Origin: Eubacteriales bacterium
GTDB lineage: Bacteria > Bacillota > Clostridia > Oscillospirales > CAG-272
DNA length: 64,000 nt
Assembly (NCBI GenBank): GCA_045602215.1
Contig: JAZSBE010000072.1
Coordinates: 1,390 to 65,389 of the forward strand
Reading direction: 5' to 3'
Below, in pieces: positions 1,205 to 52,746 of the stretch (position 1 is its first letter; every line of letters starts with the position of its first letter). Under the pieces are notes generated by a model that was not told the origin of the DNA, did not search any database, and saw nothing but the letters and a program-made list of their open reading frames with translations. The translations under genes were made by a program, and so were the position numbers.

Positions 1205-2002
1205 TCATTTCATCAAAAACGCATATACCCTTCTGTTAAAATCCTTTGCTTCTTCGTATGCGGCATGACCGTATTCGGGGTACATATAGATTTCGCAATT
1301 CATTTTTTCGGCGATTTCAAGGGAGCCTTCTCCCGTGGTGATCTGATCCTGCGCCCCGCCCAAGACGAGTACGGGACACCGAATTTCATGCAATCTGTCA
1401 TAGCAATCAAACTCCAAAATCGCCGATGCAAGCGTCGCAAATCTGTCAAAGTCACGAGGCTTGATCATTCTGACGAGAAGCGGCATCAACAGCTTGTATT
1501 TCTTCAAATATTGCTCTGTATACATCAAGGAGAAGGTTTCCCGATTGATGGTAACGGCATCCTTTTTTTTCGCGCAGTCTATCCAGCGACCTACGACCTT
1601 TTTGATGGTTTCGTTTGCTCTTGAGGACGTAACACCAAGAACCAATTTACGCACGCGGTCGGGATGTTCCAGCGTGAGCGCCAGCGCAATCATTCCGCCT
1701 TGGGACACGCCGAACACGTCTGCCGAATCCATATTCAGCGCATTCATCGCGTGGTAAAGATCCTCTGCCAAATCCCAGTTGGTCAGCCCGTTCGTGACAA
1801 CCGCTCTTCTATCAAAAAACCACACTCTGTAGTCCTTTGAAAAGAGCTTGTACATCAGCGCAAGAGATGCCCCCGCACCTTTCAGATCCCTTACATTCAA
1901 TCCTTGAATGATGATCAAATTCTTTTGCCCTTTTCCGAAAGAAAGATAGTTCAAGTCCCCGCTCGGTATCTTGACACTCCCCTCGACCAATCTCCAAAAC
2001 AT
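1205..2002 (-). CDS. alpha/beta hydrolase
   Basis: 265 aa. Nucleophile elbow GVSQGG (GxSxG), C-terminal EYGHAAY (catalytic His region), HG-like oxyanion region near the N-terminus. Confidence 0.8.
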   Translation of the reverse strand: MFWRLVEGSVKIPSGDLNYLSFGKGQKNLIIIQGLNVRDLKGAGASLALMYKLFSKDYRVWFFDRRAVVTNGLTNWDLAEDLYHAMNALNMDSADVFGVSQGGMIALALTLEHPDRVRKLVLGVTSSRANETIKKVVGRWIDCAKKKDAVTINRETFSLMYTEQYLKKYKLLMPLLVRMIKPRDFDRFATLASAILEFDCYDRLHEIRCPVLVLGGAQDQITTGEGSLEIAEKMNCEIYMYPEYGHAAYEEAKDFNRRVYAFLMK

Positions 2003-3444: not shown

Positions 3445-4440
3445 TCAAAGCACGATTTTATCAATCGCCGCCAGCTCTTCTTCGGTGAAGGGGGCAGCAT
3501 TCATTGCGCCGAGATTGTCGAGGATCTGCAAGGGCTTCGATGCTCCGACAAGCACGCTCGTCACCTCTTCGCGGCGCAAAACCCAAGCGAGCGCCATTTG
3601 GGCCAAAGACTCGCCTCTCTCCTTTGCCAGCGCATTCAAGGCGCGAATCTGCTCCAGCTTTTCCTCGGTCAAGCTTGTTTCCTTGAGGAAAAATCCGCTC
3701 GTGCGGATACGGCTGTCGGCGGGGATTCCGTGGAGATAGCGATCGGTCAGAAGCCCCTGCTCCAGCGGGCTGAACACGATCACGCCCTTCTTCTCCTCCC
3801 TTGCCGCGTCCAAAAGGCCGTTCTCTTCTACCCTGCGGTCGAAAATCGAGTAACGGTTTTGGTTAATGACAAAGGGACAGCGCAAATCGCGAAGGATCGC
3901 CGCCGCGCGCGCCATAGTTTCGCCGTCATAGTTTGAAAGCCCTACGTAAAGCGCCTTTCCGCTCTTGACGGCGTGATCAAGTGCGCCCATAGTTTCCTCA
4001 AGGGGTGTGTTGGGGTCGGGGCGGTGATGGTAAAAGATATCCACGTAGTCTAGCCCCAAACGCTTAAGGCTTGCATCCAGACTTGCAAGCAGGTATTTTC
4101 TGCTGCCAAAATCACCGTACGGGCCCTCCCACATGGTATAGCCCGCCTTGGTGCTGACGATCATTTCATCACGGTATGCACGCAGATCGTCCCGGAGTAT
4201 TTTGCCGAAATTTGCTTCGGCACTTCCCCCAACGGGTCTGCCATAATTGTTGGCAATATCAAAATGCGTGATCCCGTTATCAAAAGCGGTAAAGCACATT
4301 TCTCTCATATTTTCGAAATTGTCATTCGCACCGAAATTGTGCCAAAGTCCGAGCGACACGGTAGGCAATTTCAGCCCGCTTTCTCCGCATTTGTTGTATT
4401 TCATATCGCTATATCTTGCTTTGGATGCCGTGTATGCCAT
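3445..4440 (-). CDS. aldo/keto reductase (YghZ/Tas-like)
   Basis: Motifs GLWHNFG, FDIANNYG, GLSNY. Start moved from the ORF-track 4473 to the ATG at 4440, which has AAGGAGAAGG 4 nt upstream. TTGAAA-17-TATAAT lies upstream. Confidence 0.85.
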   Translation of the reverse strand: MAYTASKARYSDMKYNKCGESGLKLPTVSLGLWHNFGANDNFENMREMCFTAFDNGITHFDIANNYGRPVGGSAEANFGKILRDDLRAYRDEMIVSTKAGYTMWEGPYGDFGSRKYLLASLDASLKRLGLDYVDIFYHHRPDPNTPLEETMGALDHAVKSGKALYVGLSNYDGETMARAAAILRDLRCPFVINQNRYSIFDRRVEENGLLDAAREEKKGVIVFSPLEQGLLTDRYLHGIPADSRIRTSGFFLKETSLTEEKLEQIRALNALAKERGESLAQMALAWVLRREEVTSVLVGASKPLQILDNLGAMNAAPFTEEELAAIDKIVL

Positions 4441-44003: not shown

Positions 44004-44029
44004 GTGTGTAACATTTGAATATCACAAAA

Positions 44030-44292
44030 AACGACGTTGACGAAGACGGTCGGAATGTGGAGTCTGCAGAGAGTTGGCGGTTGCTGCGAGCCAATGACGA
44101 AACGTTTCAATGACCTATCACTTCTGAGTCGAAGGACCGAACGCTTTTTTTTGCAAGTAGACTCCTTCCGTAATGCTGCGTAAAGGCAAAGGGCTTGTCA
44201 GAGTCCGGAAAGTGGCGAAACGACCGTTTCGCAATTTGAGTGGTACCGCGGGTGTAATGCTCGTCTCAAGTTTTTGAGACGGGTTTTTTGTT
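44030..44292 (+). promoter_or_regulatory. T-box riboswitch leader (specifier most consistent with AUC, Ile)
   Basis: K-turn CGAC-GUU-GA-CGAAG (44032-44045) pairs with CUUCU-GA-GUCG (44121-44131). AG bulge AGAGAG (44068-44073), distal loop GGTTGCTGCGA, AAGTAG Stem II start. T-box AATTTGAGTGGTACCGCGG (44233-44251). Terminator CGTCTC/GAGACG followed by T-run (44262-44290). Confidence 0.85.
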
Positions 44293-44346: not shown

Positions 44347-46650
44347 ATGGATTTTAATTTGAAAGAAGTTGCCGATAGAATCAAGGAGCTTCGGGAAGCC
44401 AAGGGCTTTACGCAGGCAGAGCTTGCAAAGCTGACGGGTGTGTCCGAGGAGGACTATCGGATTTTGGAGATGGGCGAGACGGACTTTACCTTCACGTTCA
44501 TCTATAAGTGCGCCAAGGCGTGCGGCGTTGAGGTGGTAGATCTGCTTGAGGGTACCAGCTCGACTCTGACCTCCTTCTCCATCACGCGTCGGGGTGAGGG
44601 ACTCAAGATCGTCAAGAAAAACGGTTTTGTCTACAACAACCTCGCGCCCAAGTTCAAGGATAAGCTTGCCGAGCCCTTCCTCGTCAGCTTCCCCTATATC
44701 CCCGAGGAGCAGAACGCGCCCCTCAAGCTCAGCTCTCACAACGGTCAGGAGTTTGACGTCATCGTCAAGGGAGCTCTGAAGGTTCAGGTGGGCGACCACG
44801 TGGATATCCTCAATGAGGGCGACTCCATCTTCTATAACAGTCTCATTCCCCACGGCATGATCGCGGTCAGCGAGGGCGGATGCGAGTTCCACGCAGTGGT
44901 GCTCAATCCCCAGAACGGCGAGGTCACCGAGGAATATCCCGAAACGCCTTACGTTGTCGCCAAGGCGCCCGTAGTCGAAAAGAGCGCCGAAACGGTTGCA
45001 GACAAGTTCGTGACCTCCTCCTACGACGAGCACGGCGTCTTCAACGGCATCACATTCAAGAATGACGATCAGTTCAACTTCGCGTTCGACTGCGTTGACG
45101 CGATCGCTGACAAGGATCCAGACAAGCTCGCGATGATGTGGGTGGCAAACGATAAGACCGACCGCCGCTTCACCTTCCGCGATATGAAGCGCTATTCGGC
45201 AAAGACCGCAAACTATTTTGAATCGCTCGGCATCAAGAAGGGCGACACCGTTATGCTGGTGCTCAAGCGTCACTACCAGTTCTGGTTCTGTATGCTTGCG
45301 CTCCACAAGATCGGCGCGATCGCAATTCCCGCGACCAATCAGCTCGTCGAGCACGACTTTGCATACCGCTACAAGGCGGCAAAGGTCAAGGCGATCGTTT
45401 GCACCGCCGACGGAGACGTCTCTCTCGAGGCAGAAAAGGCTGCCGCCGAGTACCCCGAAATGGTCAAGATCCTTGTGGGCGGCAAGAAGGACGGCTGGAA
45501 GGACTTCAACGTAGAAATGGAGCGCTTCAGCACCCATTACTACCGCAACGAGAATACCCCCTGCGGCAATGACCCCATGCTCATGCTCTTTACCTCGGGC
45601 ACGACGGGTTACCCCCGCATCGCAACCCATTCCTACAAATATGCTCTGGGTCACTACCCCACGGCAAAGCATTGGCACAACGTCAACCCCGACGGCCTGC
45701 ACTTCACCATCTCGGATACGGGCTGGGGTAAGGCTCTCTGGGGCAAGCTCTACGGTCAGTGGCTGTGCGAGGCAGGTGTCTTCACCTACGACTTCGACCG
45801 ATTCCACTCCGAGGATATTCTTCCCCTCTTCAAGAAGTACAACATCACCACCTTCTGCGCTCCCCCCACCATGTATCGCTTCTTTATCAAGGAGGACCTC
45901 TCCAAGTACGATCTTTCCTCGATCCAGTACGCGACCACGGCAGGAGAAGCGCTCAATCCCGAGGTGTTCAACCAGTTCAAGAAGGCAACGGGACTTACCA
46001 TCATGGAAGGCTTCGGACAGACCGAGACCACCCTGTCGGTTGCAAACTTCGTGGGCTCTACACCCAGAATCGGCTCGATGGGTAAGCCCAGTCCGCTCTA
46101 TGACGTGGTGATCCTTGATCCCGACGGAAACGAGTGCAAGACGGGTGACACGGGTGAAATCTGCATCCGCACCAAGGACAACGTTCCCTGCGGCCTCTTC
46201 ATCGGCTACTATCTTGATGAAGAAAAGACCAACGACGTGTGGCACGACGGCTACTACCACACGGGCGACCAGGCGACCATGGACGAGGACGGATACCTCT
46301 GGTACGTGGGTCGAATCGACGACGTCATCAAATCCTCGGGTTACCGTATCGGCCCGTTTGAGATCGAGAGCGTGATCATGGAGCTTCCCTACGTGCTGCA
46401 ATGCGCCATCACCCCCGTTCCCGACGAGGTGCGCGGACAGATCGTCAAGGCGACCATCGTGCTCACCAAGGGCACCGTCGGCACCGACGCCCTCAAGAAG
46501 GAGATCCAAGAATACGTCAAGACGCACACCGCGCCCTACAAGTACCCCCGAATCGTGGAGTTCGTTGACGAGCTTCCCAAGACCATCAGCGGCAAGGTCA
46601 GACGTGTGGAGATCCGCAAGAAGGATCTCGAAAAAGCAAACGAGAAATAA
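44347..46650 (+). CDS. fusion protein: XRE-type HTH + cupin domain + AMP-forming (medium-chain type) acyl-CoA synthetase
   Basis: HTH FTQAELAKLTGVSEEDYRILEMGE. Cupin GQEFDVIVKGALKVQVGD...IPHGM. Ligase motifs FTSGTTGYPR, YHTGD, GRIDDVIKSSGYRIGPFEIE, PKTISGKVRR. AAAGGAG RBS. The antisense 744-aa ORF was rejected. Confidence 0.85.
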   Translation: MDFNLKEVADRIKELREAKGFTQAELAKLTGVSEEDYRILEMGETDFTFTFIYKCAKACGVEVVDLLEGTSSTLTSFSITRRGEGLKIVKKNGFVYNNLAPKFKDKLAEPFLVSFPYIPEEQNAPLKLSSHNGQEFDVIVKGALKVQVGDHVDILNEGDSIFYNSLIPHGMIAVSEGGCEFHAVVLNPQNGEVTEEYPETPYVVAKAPVVEKSAETVADKFVTSSYDEHGVFNGITFKNDDQFNFAFDCVDAIADKDPDKLAMMWVANDKTDRRFTFRDMKRYSAKTANYFESLGIKKGDTVMLVLKRHYQFWFCMLALHKIGAIAIPATNQLVEHDFAYRYKAAKVKAIVCTADGDVSLEAEKAAAEYPEMVKILVGGKKDGWKDFNVEMERFSTHYYRNENTPCGNDPMLMLFTSGTTGYPRIATHSYKYALGHYPTAKHWHNVNPDGLHFTISDTGWGKALWGKLYGQWLCEAGVFTYDFDRFHSEDILPLFKKYNITTFCAPPTMYRFFIKEDLSKYDLSSIQYATTAGEALNPEVFNQFKKATGLTIMEGFGQTETTLSVANFVGSTPRIGSMGKPSPLYDVVILDPDGNECKTGDTGEICIRTKDNVPCGLFIGYYLDEEKTNDVWHDGYYHTGDQATMDEDGYLWYVGRIDDVIKSSGYRIGPFEIESVIMELPYVLQCAITPVPDEVRGQIVKATIVLTKGTVGTDALKKEIQEYVKTHTAPYKYPRIVEFVDELPKTISGKVRRVEIRKKDLEKANEK

Positions 46651-46656
46651 AAATAA

Positions 46657-46688
46657 GAGGCAAGGATCTAGGTCCTTGCCTCATTTTC
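46657..46688. terminator. bidirectional terminator shared by the convergent ligase and symporter genes
   Basis: 10-bp stem GAGGCAAGGA / TCCTTGCCTC, A-rich on the left and ATTTTCTT on the right. Confidence 0.7.
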
Positions 46689-48239
46689 TTATTCTTCGTC
46701 ATAGCAGGAGAAGATCTCCTCTACTCGCTCGGTATCCTTCTGCTTGGTAAGCGCGCTGACAACGGGTACCACGATCAGGGAGACCGCCATAGCGGCAACG
46801 CCCATCTCGGGCGACTTTGCAGCCGCTGCGGAGAAGCCCGAAGTCAGAGAAATGACCAGCGTGGGAATGCCAACGGTCAGAAGTCCTGCAAGCATCCCTG
46901 CATACGCGCCGATCTTGGTGATCTTCTTGGAGAAAAGTCCCCAGATATATGGGCCGATGAAGCAGCCCGAAACCACACCCCAGGAGAAGGACATCACACT
47001 GACGATGATCGGGATATTGCGCGTTGCGAAGAAGAAGGAGCATCCCACGAACGCAAGGCACAAGAGTCTTGTCAGGAGCATCTGTGTCTCCGACTTCACA
47101 CTCTTTTTTCTGACAGCGGGAATAAGATCCACCGCCACCGCCGACGCGGAGGTCAAAACGACCGAAACCAGCGTGGACATGGACGCGGACAGAAGCAACA
47201 CGATCATGACTGCCAGAAGAACCGTTCCAAAGACGTTTGCACCCAGCACCTCCATGAGCACCGAGGGAATGATCGCGTCAATGCCGCCCTCGGGAAGCTT
47301 GCCGCCCAAAATCAGCCTTGACGTGCAACCGATCAGGTATGCGCCACAGCCAATGATCACGCAGAAAATGGTGGAGATCACCGTTCCGCGCTTGATGGAA
47401 TCGGTATCCTTAATGGCGTAGAACTTTCCGATCATCTGCGGAAGTCCCCACGTACCGAAGCTGGTCAGCAGGATGTTAAAGCAGAGGAACTTGAAGGAAG
47501 ATCCGCCGAAAATACTGGTCAATTGTGCCCCCGTGGTGGGATTGGGGTCATCGGGGAGAGACTCAAACGCCTTGAGATTTTGGATCAAGCCCCCAAGACC
47601 GCCCACGCGATCGTGACCGAGCACAACGACCACCAGGCAAACCACGCCCGCGATCATCACGATTCCCTGAATGAGATTGGTGTATGCGGTTGCGATGTAT
47701 CCGCCGATCACGAGGTAGATCGCGGTCAGGCAGGCGATCAAAAGCATCCAAACCCAAGTCTCCACACCCGGGAAGATCACCTGAAAGAGAGATCCCAGTC
47801 CCTTATAGACCGCCGCGGAGTACGGCACGAGGAAGATGAAGATGATGATCGCCGAGAGGACCTTCATGCCCTTCGCGCCATACCGTTTTTCAAAATAATC
47901 GGGCATGGTCTTGGCATTCAGCCGCCCCGTCATCTTTCTGGTGCGGTTGGCAAGCAGGATCCAAGAGAGCAAGCAACCGAGGACGGCGTTGCCGACGCCG
48001 ATCCAGATACTGCCCAGACCGATGTTCCAGCCGTGCTGTCCCGCGTAGCCGACGAACACCACCGCCGAGAAATAGGTCGTTCCGTAAGCGAACGCCGTCA
48101 TCCACGCGCCAATGTTTCTACCTCCGATCAGAAAGCCGTCCAGCGTTTTGGATTTTCCGTAGCTGATGCAACCTGCGAATGCCATTGCGATGCCGTAAAG
48201 GCAAAGCGCTACGATGGTGTAAAGTTGTGGAGCTGTCAT
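46689..48239 (-). CDS. sodium:solute symporter (SSS) family transporter
   Basis: 516 aa, about 13 TM helices. N-terminal GFLIGGRNIGAWMTAFAYGTTYFSAVVFVGYAG is typical of the SSS family (PutP/PanF/ActP relatives). AAAGGAGG RBS. Confidence 0.85.
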   Translation of the reverse strand: MTAPQLYTIVALCLYGIAMAFAGCISYGKSKTLDGFLIGGRNIGAWMTAFAYGTTYFSAVVFVGYAGQHGWNIGLGSIWIGVGNAVLGCLLSWILLANRTRKMTGRLNAKTMPDYFEKRYGAKGMKVLSAIIIFIFLVPYSAAVYKGLGSLFQVIFPGVETWVWMLLIACLTAIYLVIGGYIATAYTNLIQGIVMIAGVVCLVVVVLGHDRVGGLGGLIQNLKAFESLPDDPNPTTGAQLTSIFGGSSFKFLCFNILLTSFGTWGLPQMIGKFYAIKDTDSIKRGTVISTIFCVIIGCGAYLIGCTSRLILGGKLPEGGIDAIIPSVLMEVLGANVFGTVLLAVMIVLLLSASMSTLVSVVLTSASAVAVDLIPAVRKKSVKSETQMLLTRLLCLAFVGCSFFFATRNIPIIVSVMSFSWGVVSGCFIGPYIWGLFSKKITKIGAYAGMLAGLLTVGIPTLVISLTSGFSAAAAKSPEMGVAAMAVSLIVVPVVSALTKQKDTERVEEIFSCYDEE

Positions 48240-48280
48240 GTTTTTTTCCTCCTTTGGTTTTTGGAATGACAGAGAAACCT

Positions 48281-48570
48281 CAGAGAGGAAAAAAACACGC
48301 CCTCTGCATTCCGTTCAGAATACAGAGGACGAGAAATTCCCGCGGTACCACCTCAATTTACCGACGTCTCGCGACTTCGGCCTTTCAGAGTGTCTATCAA
48401 CACCCCCGTTCTGTAACGGGAACACCCGTTGCGGCCTACTGAAAAAAGCTTCGTTCGGCGCACTGCTCGCAGGATGTATTCCGCTCGGGCTCTCCGTTGT
48501 CTTGCACCAACCGACAACTCTCTGTAGGAAAATTCCAAGCCTACTCTTTCCTGCTCAAACGCATTTGATA
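48281..48570 (-). promoter_or_regulatory. T-box riboswitch leader, specifier UAC (Tyr)
   Basis: Reverse strand shows K-turn TGC-GUUU-GA-GCAGGA / UCCUGC-GA-GCA, AAGAGUAG, AG bulge AGAGAG, distal loop GGUUGGUGCAA, and specifier loop GGAA-UAC-A (UAC = forward 48476-48478). Also F-box-like CCGUUA, T-box AAUUGAGGUGGUACCGCGGG, and terminator CGTCCTCTG/CAGAGGGCG followed by a U-run. Confidence 0.85.
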
Positions 48571-48575
48571 CTGGT

Positions 48576-48604
48576 ATTATAGCACCATCGAGGCGTATTG
48601 TCAA
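48576..48604 (-). promoter_or_regulatory. sigma70-type promoter of the Tyr T-box leader
   Basis: Reverse strand reads TTGACA-17 nt-TATAAT (perfect consensus). Confidence 0.65.
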
Positions 48605-48632
48605 GCATTTTTTTACATTTTGCGCCTATAAA

Positions 48633-49559
48633 CTATTGCGCGGTCTTCAGATACTCCTCAGAAAGATGCGCCGCCACCGCGCCGTCTCCCACCGCCGTGA
48701 CCACCTGTCGGAGAATCTTGGTCCGCACGTCTCCCACGGCAAACACACCCTCAAGGTTGGTCTTGGTCGTTTCGTCCGCAATCACGTACCCTTGCGCGTC
48801 CAGATCCACCTGCCCTGCAAACAATTCGGTGGCGGGAAGGCGGCCCACGCTGACAAACAGTCCGTCCAAGGGGAGCGACTGCCGCTCACCGCTTTGCGTA
48901 TTTTGCAGCACAATGCCCGTCAGCTTGCCTTCGGACACACTCCATTCGGCAACGGTGTTGTTCCATAAGAACTCGACGTTTTCCGCCGCCATCAGCGGCT
49001 TTTCATAGATCGCGGTCGCGCGAAGGCGATCCCTGCGGTGAATGAGATACACCTTTTTTGCAAGTCCCGAGAGATACAAGGCGTCCGACACAGCGGAGTT
49101 CCCTCCTCCCACGACGGCAACGACCTTATCCTTGTAGAATCGTCCATCGCAGTGCGCGCAATAGTGCAAGCCGCGCCCGACAAAGTTCTCCTCTCCCGCA
49201 AGTCCCAAGGGTCTCGGATTTGCTCCCGTCGCAATCACGACCGTCTTCGCCAGACGTTCCCCGTCGGAGGTCAGAATCCGCTTGATCCTGCCCTTCAGAT
49301 CTACCTGCAAGACCTCCGTATATTCGGTCTTCGCGCCAAACCGCTCCGCCCCCGCTTGCATCCTCATACCCAGCGTAAAGCCGTCCACCCCCTCGTCATA
49401 ACCGGGGTAGTTATCGATCACGTCGGTCAGAGCCATCTGCCCGCCCACCGACATTCGCTCGAGAACCAAGGTATCCAGCCCTGCACGGCAGGCATAGAGC
49501 GCCGCCGTGTATCCCGCAGGCCCTCCGCCAATCACGATCATATCGTAAACTCGATCCAT
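48633..49559 (-). CDS. trxB: thioredoxin-disulfide reductase
   Basis: 308 aa. VIGGGPAGYTAALYA FAD motif, redox-active CAHCDG, GGGNSA NADPH motif. AAGGAGGTGG RBS. Confidence 0.9.
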   Translation of the reverse strand: MDRVYDMIVIGGGPAGYTAALYACRAGLDTLVLERMSVGGQMALTDVIDNYPGYDEGVDGFTLGMRMQAGAERFGAKTEYTEVLQVDLKGRIKRILTSDGERLAKTVVIATGANPRPLGLAGEENFVGRGLHYCAHCDGRFYKDKVVAVVGGGNSAVSDALYLSGLAKKVYLIHRRDRLRATAIYEKPLMAAENVEFLWNNTVAEWSVSEGKLTGIVLQNTQSGERQSLPLDGLFVSVGRLPATELFAGQVDLDAQGYVIADETTKTNLEGVFAVGDVRTKILRQVVTAVGDGAVAAHLSEEYLKTAQ

Positions 49560-52447: not shown

Positions 52448-52521
<74 letters not shown>

Positions 52522-52579
52522 TAACATTGTTGCTTCCCGTCTTGAAAGACGGGAAGCAAACTAATGTTTCATCTCTGAT

Positions 52580-52656
<77 letters not shown>

Positions 52657-52668
52657 GAAATTGAATAT

Positions 52669-52746
52669 GGTGGGATTGGCGCAGTTGGTTAGCGCGTCAG
52701 GTTGTGGCCCTGAAGGCCGTGGGTTCGAATCCCATATCTCACCCCA
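52669..52746 (+). tRNA. tRNA-His (anticodon GUG) with extra 5' G(-1), CCA encoded
   Basis: G-1 followed by acceptor GTGGGAT/ATCTCAC, anticodon stem TCAGG/CCTGA with loop TTGTGGC (GTG at 52704-52706), T-loop GGTTCGAATCC. Confidence 0.9.

Follow-up and report, generated by a model that had tools for sequence, protein, structure and literature searches.

We identified a tyrosine-specific T-box leader in front of a gene for a transporter of the sodium:solute symporter (SSS) family in a stretch of 64,000 nucleotides (nt; hereafter the window) from contig JAZSBE010000072.1 of an Eubacteriales bacterium of the Oscillospirales (assembly GCA_045602215.1). From its anatomy and from knowledge of the family, the leader is predicted to attenuate transcription and to read uncharged tRNA-Tyr. 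The transporter is a member of the SSS family and is the equivalog of no curated subfamily. The genes that recur beside its relatives suggest, at roughly even chances, that the substrate is 4-hydroxyphenylacetate or related aryl acids for reductive carboxylation, and we favour this over tyrosine itself. The fuller proposal, that the Tyr T-box controls the import of a precursor other than an amino acid (4-hydroxyphenylacetate, converted to tyrosine via a PaaK-type ligase and IorAB), falls a little short of even and is put forward tentatively. The regulated unit comprises the following features:

48576-48604, reverse strand: sigma-70-type promoter, with TTGACA at 48604-48599, a 17-nt spacer and a TG-extended TATAAT at 48581-48576 (sequence and promoter scan)
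48322-48568, reverse strand: T-box leader, with Stem I (K-turn, specifier loop, AG bulge, distal loop), Stem III and antiterminator (Rfam RF00230)
48476-48478, reverse strand: specifier codon UAC (Tyr) in the context GGAA-UAC-A, immediately 5' of the UCCUGC strand (covariance alignment)
48339-48358, reverse strand: T-box sequence AAUUGAGGUGGUACCGCGGG, with the UGGU bulge at 48350-48347 (sequence and Rfam alignment)
48289-48331, reverse strand: intrinsic terminator of the leader, with a 15-pair stem and GAAC loop (48331-48298) and a U-run (terminator scan)
48248-48255, reverse strand: ribosome-binding site AAAGGAGG, 8 nt 5' of the transporter ATG (read from the sequence)
46689-48239, reverse strand: SSS-family transporter of 516 amino acids, the only gene under Tyr T-box control (PF00474 match)

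The promoter agrees with the consensus at 12 of 12 positions and is the sole promoter-like site in the 2.2 kb scanned (46500-48700). The leader matches RF00230 at 128.9 bits (gathering score 93; E 2.7e-28) over model positions 1-219 of 219. The UCCUGC that follows the specifier UAC-A pairs with GCAGGA beside the K-turn to form the closing helix, and the AG bulge, the distal loop (GGUUGGUGCAA) and CCGUUA were also read. The UGGU bulge is complementary to an ACCA 3' end, which implies A73 as the discriminator; bacterial tRNA-Tyr carries A73. No tRNA-Tyr gene was found within the window. The terminator folds at -28.4 kcal/mol (z = -3.84), with none of 200 shuffles as stable, and the 5' half of its stem shares sequence with the 3' strand of the antiterminator. 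The promoter and leader elements reported by an earlier sequence-only reading of this DNA are all present where it placed them, and its assignment of the specifier to tyrosine is upheld by the covariance alignment.

We propose that the leader acts when charging of tRNA-Tyr falls. In Stem I, the UAC specifier would be bound by the GUA anticodon of the uncharged tRNA, whose free ACCA end would pair with the UGGU bulge. Binding of the tRNA would stabilise the antiterminator over the terminator (48331-48298), and a monocistronic transporter mRNA would be completed. The product would be a Na+-coupled importer whose substrate must raise the charging of tRNA-Tyr.

The transporter has a single Pfam match, to PF00474 (175.6 bits, cut-off 22.8, E 2e-51), which covers the profile in full (1-406 of 406). 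Thus, the Tyr T-box does precede an SSS-family gene, as had been claimed. The score against the NCBIfam superfamily model TIGR00813 is slightly under the cut-off (175.2 vs. 184), and the equivalog cut-offs of PutP (178.7 vs. 515.5), PanF (139.6 vs. 328), ActP (59.2 vs. 750) and MctC (57.7 vs. 670) are not reached. An SMST motif occurs near residue 352, which we take to be the position of the PutP Ser-Thr pair (Na2 site). Within a library of 50%-identity representatives the transporter group forms one cluster, and the next relatives are at most 51% identical.

A scan of GTDB species genomes with the transporter returned 427 relatives, of which the best 80 (77-96% identity), each from a different assembly, were analysed as orthologues. 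These derive from Oscillospiraceae, Acutalibacteraceae and related gut metagenome-assembled genomes (MAGs), many of them of ruminant source. The census of loci therefore has 81 members (80 orthologues and the window; individual loci are cited by L number), and the set of leaders has 25 (24 orthologues and the window). LysR and PaaK genes near the orthologues were located by tblastn with marker proteins. For an outgroup, 12 representatives were taken; 10 lie on short or uninformative contigs, and the informative distant relatives are L083 (49% identity) and L084 (45%). The orthologues are ~80% identical although the MAGs are labelled as different genera and families, for which strong constraint and recent horizontal spread are both possible.

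An upstream T-box was identified in 24 of the 80 orthologues, in every case above the RF00230 gathering score (95-149 bits). The sequence AAUAC is invariant at the specifier of all 25 leaders, and the base 3' of the codon is A, C or G. Across the same leaders, 15 of the 20 pairs of Stem I (closing helix included) show double compensatory changes. The 3' motif of the T-box is ACCACG in most orthologous leaders and ACCGCG in three of the 80 orthologues. A T-box with a UAC specifier (100.5 bits; L084 3701-3943) also stands before the 45%-identity SSS relative, which belongs to a different lineage with a higher-GC genome (leader 61% GC). The invariance of UAC and its presence in this relative make the Tyr assignment robust and place its origin before the tight orthologue group. 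At one locus (L031 3061-3354), two tRNA genes and a Gut-1 small RNA (RF01706, 73 bits) lie immediately 5' of the Tyr T-box.

These data bear on the possibility that the T-box is decaying or coincidental and that the transporter serves an unrelated solute (for example, proline or pantothenate). We consider this very improbable. The nearest curated models are indeed PutP and PanF, and 56 of the 81 loci lack a T-box. However, both equivalog cut-offs are missed widely, all parts of the window leader are intact with a score 36 bits above the gathering score, and the 24 orthologous leaders combine high scores with compensatory changes. Proline and pantothenate, which the earlier reading had named as substrates that would speak against its interpretation, thus find no support, given scores far below the PutP and PanF (and ActP) cut-offs.

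A divergent gene of the LysR family replaces the T-box in 45 of the 81 loci, and 11 loci have neither. Promoters of the LysR class share a palindrome, ATCGAAA-N-TTTCGAT, beside a TTGACTAAT -35 box between the LysR and transporter genes (within the 200 nt 5' of the transporter; e.g., L004 at ~3880-4000, L008, L012 and L028). This palindrome is probably the LysR operator. It occurs also in three loci with no adjacent LysR gene (L059, L065, L067). The T-box and LysR classes form mostly separate groups in a neighbour-joining tree, with few exceptions. Transporters of the two classes are ~80% identical and no close paralogues were found, so they were treated as orthologues with swapped regulation. 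L029 and L070 each carry a second SSS copy; these were considered as paralogues and set aside as unrelated family members (26-29% identity). Among curated effector-specific families, none matches the LysR regulator, which therefore gives no clue to the inducer. A 478-amino-acid protein with two ACT domains and a metallo-beta-lactamase fold is encoded just 5' of LysR in three loci (L026 1351-2787, L040 27-317, L052 1477-2913); a metallo-beta-lactamase-fold gene 28 nt 3' of the L031 transporter is unrelated to it.

Gene order around the transporter is scrambled: of 327 neighbour families over the 81 loci, 285 were seen once. Only LysR, PaaK, acyl-CoA ligases and an ACT-pair protein are found in 10 or more loci. 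The PaaK-like phenylacetate-CoA ligase matches TIGR02155 over its full length at 524 bits, below the equivalog cut-off of 646. It is encoded within 4 kb of the transporter in 21 of 81 loci; 18 of the 63 loci with enough sequence have it directly downstream of the transporter gene and in the same orientation. Seventeen of these 18 directly downstream genes carry their own T-box with a UUC (Phe) specifier, ~270-870 nt past the transporter stop (L011, L012, L020, L028, L037, L040, L045, L049, L055, L059, L066-L069, L071, L073 and L076). The PaaK gene is usually followed by that of the ACT-pair protein (PF19571), and a PaaK paralogue of 76% identity in L024 also has a UUC T-box. The Phe-T-box operon runs on into PheA (chorismate mutase/prephenate dehydratase) in L028 and L067. 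A PaaK gene in an operon with PheA under a Phe T-box implies that the direction of PaaK is biosynthetic and serves phenylalanine supply. AMP-forming ligases run from acid to CoA thioester.

The exception to separate gating of PaaK is L061, where the PaaK gene begins 24 nt after the transporter with its own ribosome-binding site, and the single T-box of the locus is that for Tyr. As this PaaK gene has no T-box of its own, the locus reads as one Tyr-gated transporter-PaaK-ACT operon. Genes for indolepyruvate:ferredoxin oxidoreductase (IOR, encoded by IorAB) were identified in further arrangements. L079 (2-3829, reverse strand) and L010 (3-3726, reverse strand) encode an operon of a 551-amino-acid acyl-CoA ligase, IorA and IorB, divergent from the transporter; this IorA passes the IOR_alpha equivalog cut-off of TIGR03336 (718.8 vs. 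650.9 bits). The short intergenic region between this operon and the transporter holds CACTTTAAAGTG-type palindromes. In the distant relative L083 (4001-9479), genes for IorA, IorB, the ACT-pair protein and a pyridoxal-phosphate enzyme of the Met_gamma_lyase family come after the SSS gene in the same orientation; a GntR regulator is encoded 5' of the SSS relative, and this locus has no T-box. When metagenomes were scanned with P0125, the protein of the L083 type, a single match above 40% identity was returned, which is too few to judge whether the SSS-IOR association recurs.

Other T-box genes also occur nearby. A Trp (UGG) T-box with a UGGC bulge (G73) precedes a 406-amino-acid PALP (TrpB-like) enzyme in L008 (~1290-1560, forward strand) and L029 (2640-2900, reverse strand). 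This gene stands a few kb from the LysR-transporter pair, and indole salvage is possible. A T-box that is probably specific for Phe (GAAUUCAC) precedes an ABC substrate-binding protein (PF04392) and permease 3' of the transporter in L014 (5689-7926).

Taken with the Tyr switch, the acid-activating neighbours suggest a pathway. The transporter would be the uptake step of an acid salvage system. A PaaK-type ligase would turn imported 4-hydroxyphenylacetate into its CoA thioester, and IorAB would reductively carboxylate the thioester to 4-hydroxyphenylpyruvate, from which tyrosine would be formed by transamination. Other modules of the system would be gated by their own T-boxes, that is, a Phe T-box on PaaK-ACT(-PheA) and an Ile or Leu T-box on a fusion of helix-turn-helix (HTH), cupin and acyl-CoA synthetase domains (described below). 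Aryl-acetates such as 4-hydroxyphenylacetate are fermentation products that are abundant in the gut and rumen.

Several lines of evidence lead us to favour an aryl acid as the substrate. The only neighbours that appear to be selected are acid-activating enzymes, and the association is repeated across independent arrangements as well as in a distant clade. L061 places the transporter and PaaK together under Tyr control. An anabolic direction is indicated both by ligases of the AMP-forming type and by T-box regulation. In addition, the SSS family includes carboxylate carriers and has a functional parallel in PaaL (PMC3224230), and rumen bacteria build amino acids from acids of this type (PMC7356843).

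A number of observations weigh against an aryl acid. Acid-activation neighbours are found in 5 of the 25 T-box-class loci and are rarer there than in the LysR class, the link to IOR is seen in three loci only, and fusion of the transporter and PaaK in one operon is seen in one. PaaK is mostly Phe-gated, so Tyr starvation alone would not induce the known neighbouring ligase. Elsewhere in the 64-kb window no PaaK, IOR or aromatic-pathway gene was found. Other T-box supply genes cluster at these loci, and the synteny may thus partly reflect a general amino-acid-supply island. The public names of the transporter relatives are all generic ('sodium:solute symporter'), and the closest solved structures are remote (SGLT1, SMVT, SiaT). 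Finally, tyrosine itself is what one would expect from the usual rule that a T-box codon matches the amino acid transported (PMC2494555).

Import of L-tyrosine (or of aromatic amino acids), with the acid-salvage neighbours explained by general clustering of supply genes, is accordingly a serious alternative, to which we give roughly one chance in three. It would account for the invariant UAC of the 25 leaders and of the 45%-identity relative, and the best NCBIfam match, PutP, is an amino-acid carrier (for proline). It also fits the 20 of 25 T-box-class loci with no acid-activation neighbour, the window with neither PaaK nor IOR, the normally Phe-gated PaaK, and the unrelated T-box genes nearby (Trp T-box with TrpB-like enzyme, T-box with ABC transporter). 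However, it leaves unexplained why acid-activating enzymes are the only recurrent neighbours amid scrambled synteny, why the link appears in several independent arrangements and in the 49%-identity clade, and why L061 has a Tyr-gated transporter-PaaK operon. The divergent LysR gene of 45 loci would also resemble substrate-induced uptake of a metabolite more than amino acid import, and we know of no SSS member that carries aromatic amino acids, which we count against tyrosine as well. Structure would not be expected to separate the two substrates: among solved structures there is no close substrate-bound template for the transporter pocket, and a carboxylate and a phenol are present in both tyrosine and 4-hydroxyphenylacetate. 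The earlier suggestion of tyrosine or an aryl-acid precursor as the substrate is thus strengthened by PaaK, ACT and IorAB neighbours and by the L061 operon, and the choice between tyrosine and 4-hydroxyphenylacetate is not settled by them.

A broad monocarboxylate importer (for branched-chain volatile fatty acids and aryl-acetates) that serves all of the neighbouring ligases, with the Tyr T-box as one interchangeable input, is improbable. The transporter does adjoin three families of acid-CoA ligase (PaaK, an MbcS-like fusion and the 551-amino-acid ligase), its T-box and LysR regulation have been swapped in evolution, and the SSS family has monocarboxylate carriers, two models of which (ActP and MctC) match weakly but significantly. 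Yet those scores are far under the cut-offs, and the T-box is always specific for Tyr and never for Ile, Leu or Phe, although these are the specifiers found on the neighbouring ligases. At the concentrations present in the gut, volatile fatty acids can also pass through membranes unaided, which counts against such an importer too.

The remaining features of interest lie on the other side of the transporter gene:

44028-44271, forward strand: second T-box leader, specifier AUC (Ile), RF00230 97.6 bits, outside the Tyr unit
44347-46650, forward strand: convergent fusion protein of 767 amino acids with HTH_3, Cupin_2 and AMP-forming acyl-CoA synthetase (MbcS-like) domains (Pfam)
46657-46682, both strands: bidirectional terminator hairpin of 26 nt, with 10-11 pairs and T-rich tails on each side (terminator scan)

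The stops of the transporter and of the fusion ligase are 38 nt apart, and the hairpin sits within this gap and scores on both strands; the single shared terminator described earlier is therefore borne out. So is T-box control of the ligase, by a switch that reads Ile. The nearest NCBIfam model for the fusion ligase is MbcS, a branched-chain acyl-CoA synthetase, at 453 bits against a cut-off of 850. The ligase adjoins the transporter in 10 of the 81 loci, where it is convergent, tandem or upstream. Of the conservation expected in related genomes, then, the UAC T-box was found in a substantial minority of orthologues, and the pairing with this ligase is infrequent and varied in arrangement. The Ile T-box (GACCU-AUC-A-CUUC) is kept before the fusion ligase in the window, L001, L002, L009, L066 and L067, and the corresponding T-box of L044 (2255-2507) reads CUC (Leu). 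This switching between Ile and Leu specifiers fits activation of branched-chain fatty acids for Ile and Leu synthesis. Thus, we conclude that the fusion ligase belongs to an Ile/Leu module and is outside the tyrosine route. The proposal that the two genes form one locus, in which starvation leads to uptake and activation of an acid, has to be amended: the ligase is MbcS-like and answers to Ile (Leu in L044), and the commoner partner of the transporter is PaaK, which is outside the window.

The N-terminal domains of the fusion ligase (XRE-type HTH and cupin) resemble those of regulators. The 551-amino-acid ligase of L010, L034 and L079 was considered as a relative of the fusion ligase and rejected, as it is ~24% identical and forms a separate family. 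Other genes around the locus are unrelated (e.g., thioredoxin reductase, GH94 phosphorylase, permeases and tRNAs). The tRNAs include a Gly(TCC)-Arg(TCT)-His(GTG) cluster at 52448-52746 on the forward strand.

Neither T-box leaders nor transporters under their control are new. The more interesting pattern, if confirmed, would be the combination of acid-activation genes that have amino-acid-specific T-boxes with a linked transporter that has a Tyr T-box. Branched-chain and aryl fermentation acids are the source from which many rumen and gut anaerobes make Ile, Leu, Phe and probably Tyr. If our proposal is correct, the genes described here would constitute a tRNA-gated salvage system, from fermentation acid to amino acid, in uncultured gut Oscillospirales, and would provide genes and regulators for the acid requirements of rumen bacteria that were described in the 1960s. 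This set is open to testing and comprises the transporter, the PaaK-like ligase with its ACT protein, IorAB and the MbcS-like fusion, each under an RNA switch for a particular amino acid. Either reading of the substrate would widen the range of the SSS family, in which we know of no aromatic amino acid carrier and no Gram-positive carrier of aryl acids. It is common to annotate transporter substrates from the specifier, a rule that would be qualified by a specifier that points to a precursor. As the carriers of these genes are uncultured gut MAGs, predicted nutritional dependencies could guide cultivation.

The families of T-box-regulated transporters listed in the published surveys consulted are ABC, APC, DAACS, LIVCS, MFS, NhaC and NSS, of which NhaC is the one linked to Tyr (PMC2494555). 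SSS is absent from these lists, in agreement with the earlier remark that it is outside the usual families. In the literature searched, we found no link of a T-box to an SSS transporter or to a phenylacetate-CoA ligase, though Vitreschak 2008 or Gutierrez-Preciado 2009 may mention one. Transporter substrates are conventionally assigned from the specifier, and the tested cases mostly agree (PMC2494555; for TrpX, PMC9382623). The NhaC-family Tyr transporters (YheL-like, BA4345; Bacilli and Clostridia) likewise have a Tyr T-box directly 5' of a single secondary transporter (PMC2494555). They have been proposed to supply tyrosine. The window protein differs in belonging to SSS (PF00474) and not to NhaC, and no linkage to an aryl-acid-CoA ligase or IOR has been reported for the NhaC transporters, unlike the relatives of the window transporter. 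The same logic, in which uncharged tRNA turns on uptake, applies to the TrpXYZ ABC transporter, MetNPQ and BrnQ/LIVCS (PMC2494555; PMC9382623). These belong to other families with other cognate amino acids, and their substrates are the amino acids themselves.

Within the SSS family (TC 2.A.21), PutP (proline) and PanF (pantothenate) share the Pfam family of the window transporter and are its best curated models. Unlike them, the window transporter and its relatives are under Tyr T-box or LysR control and have other neighbours, and the window protein scores under the equivalog cut-offs. Another permease for comparison is PaaL, presumably also an SSS member (TC 2.A.21.7). In Pseudomonas this phenylacetate permease is required for the use of aryl-acetates and is genetically coupled to phenylacetate-CoA ligase, and PaaL/PhaJ of the paa clusters resemble the transporter described here as secondary permeases tied to such a ligase (PMC3224230). 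PaaL functions in aerobic catabolism under sigma-54 or PaaX control, whereas the window transporter is predicted to be gated by amino-acid starvation and has a weak ActP-type match (59 bits). Gating by starvation points to an anabolic role, unlike that of PaaL.

The methanogen Methanococcus maripaludis also makes aromatic amino acids from aryl acids, via an aryl-acid-CoA ligase and IOR. To our knowledge, no transporter or T-box control has been assigned to this reductive carboxylation route. Rumen bacteria form phenylalanine from phenylacetate, and leucine from isovalerate, by carboxylation (PMC7356843). The set of proteins for the route from aryl acid to aromatic amino acid in such bacteria, a PaaK-like ligase and IorAB, is the same as that encoded, with the ACT protein, beside relatives of the window transporter.

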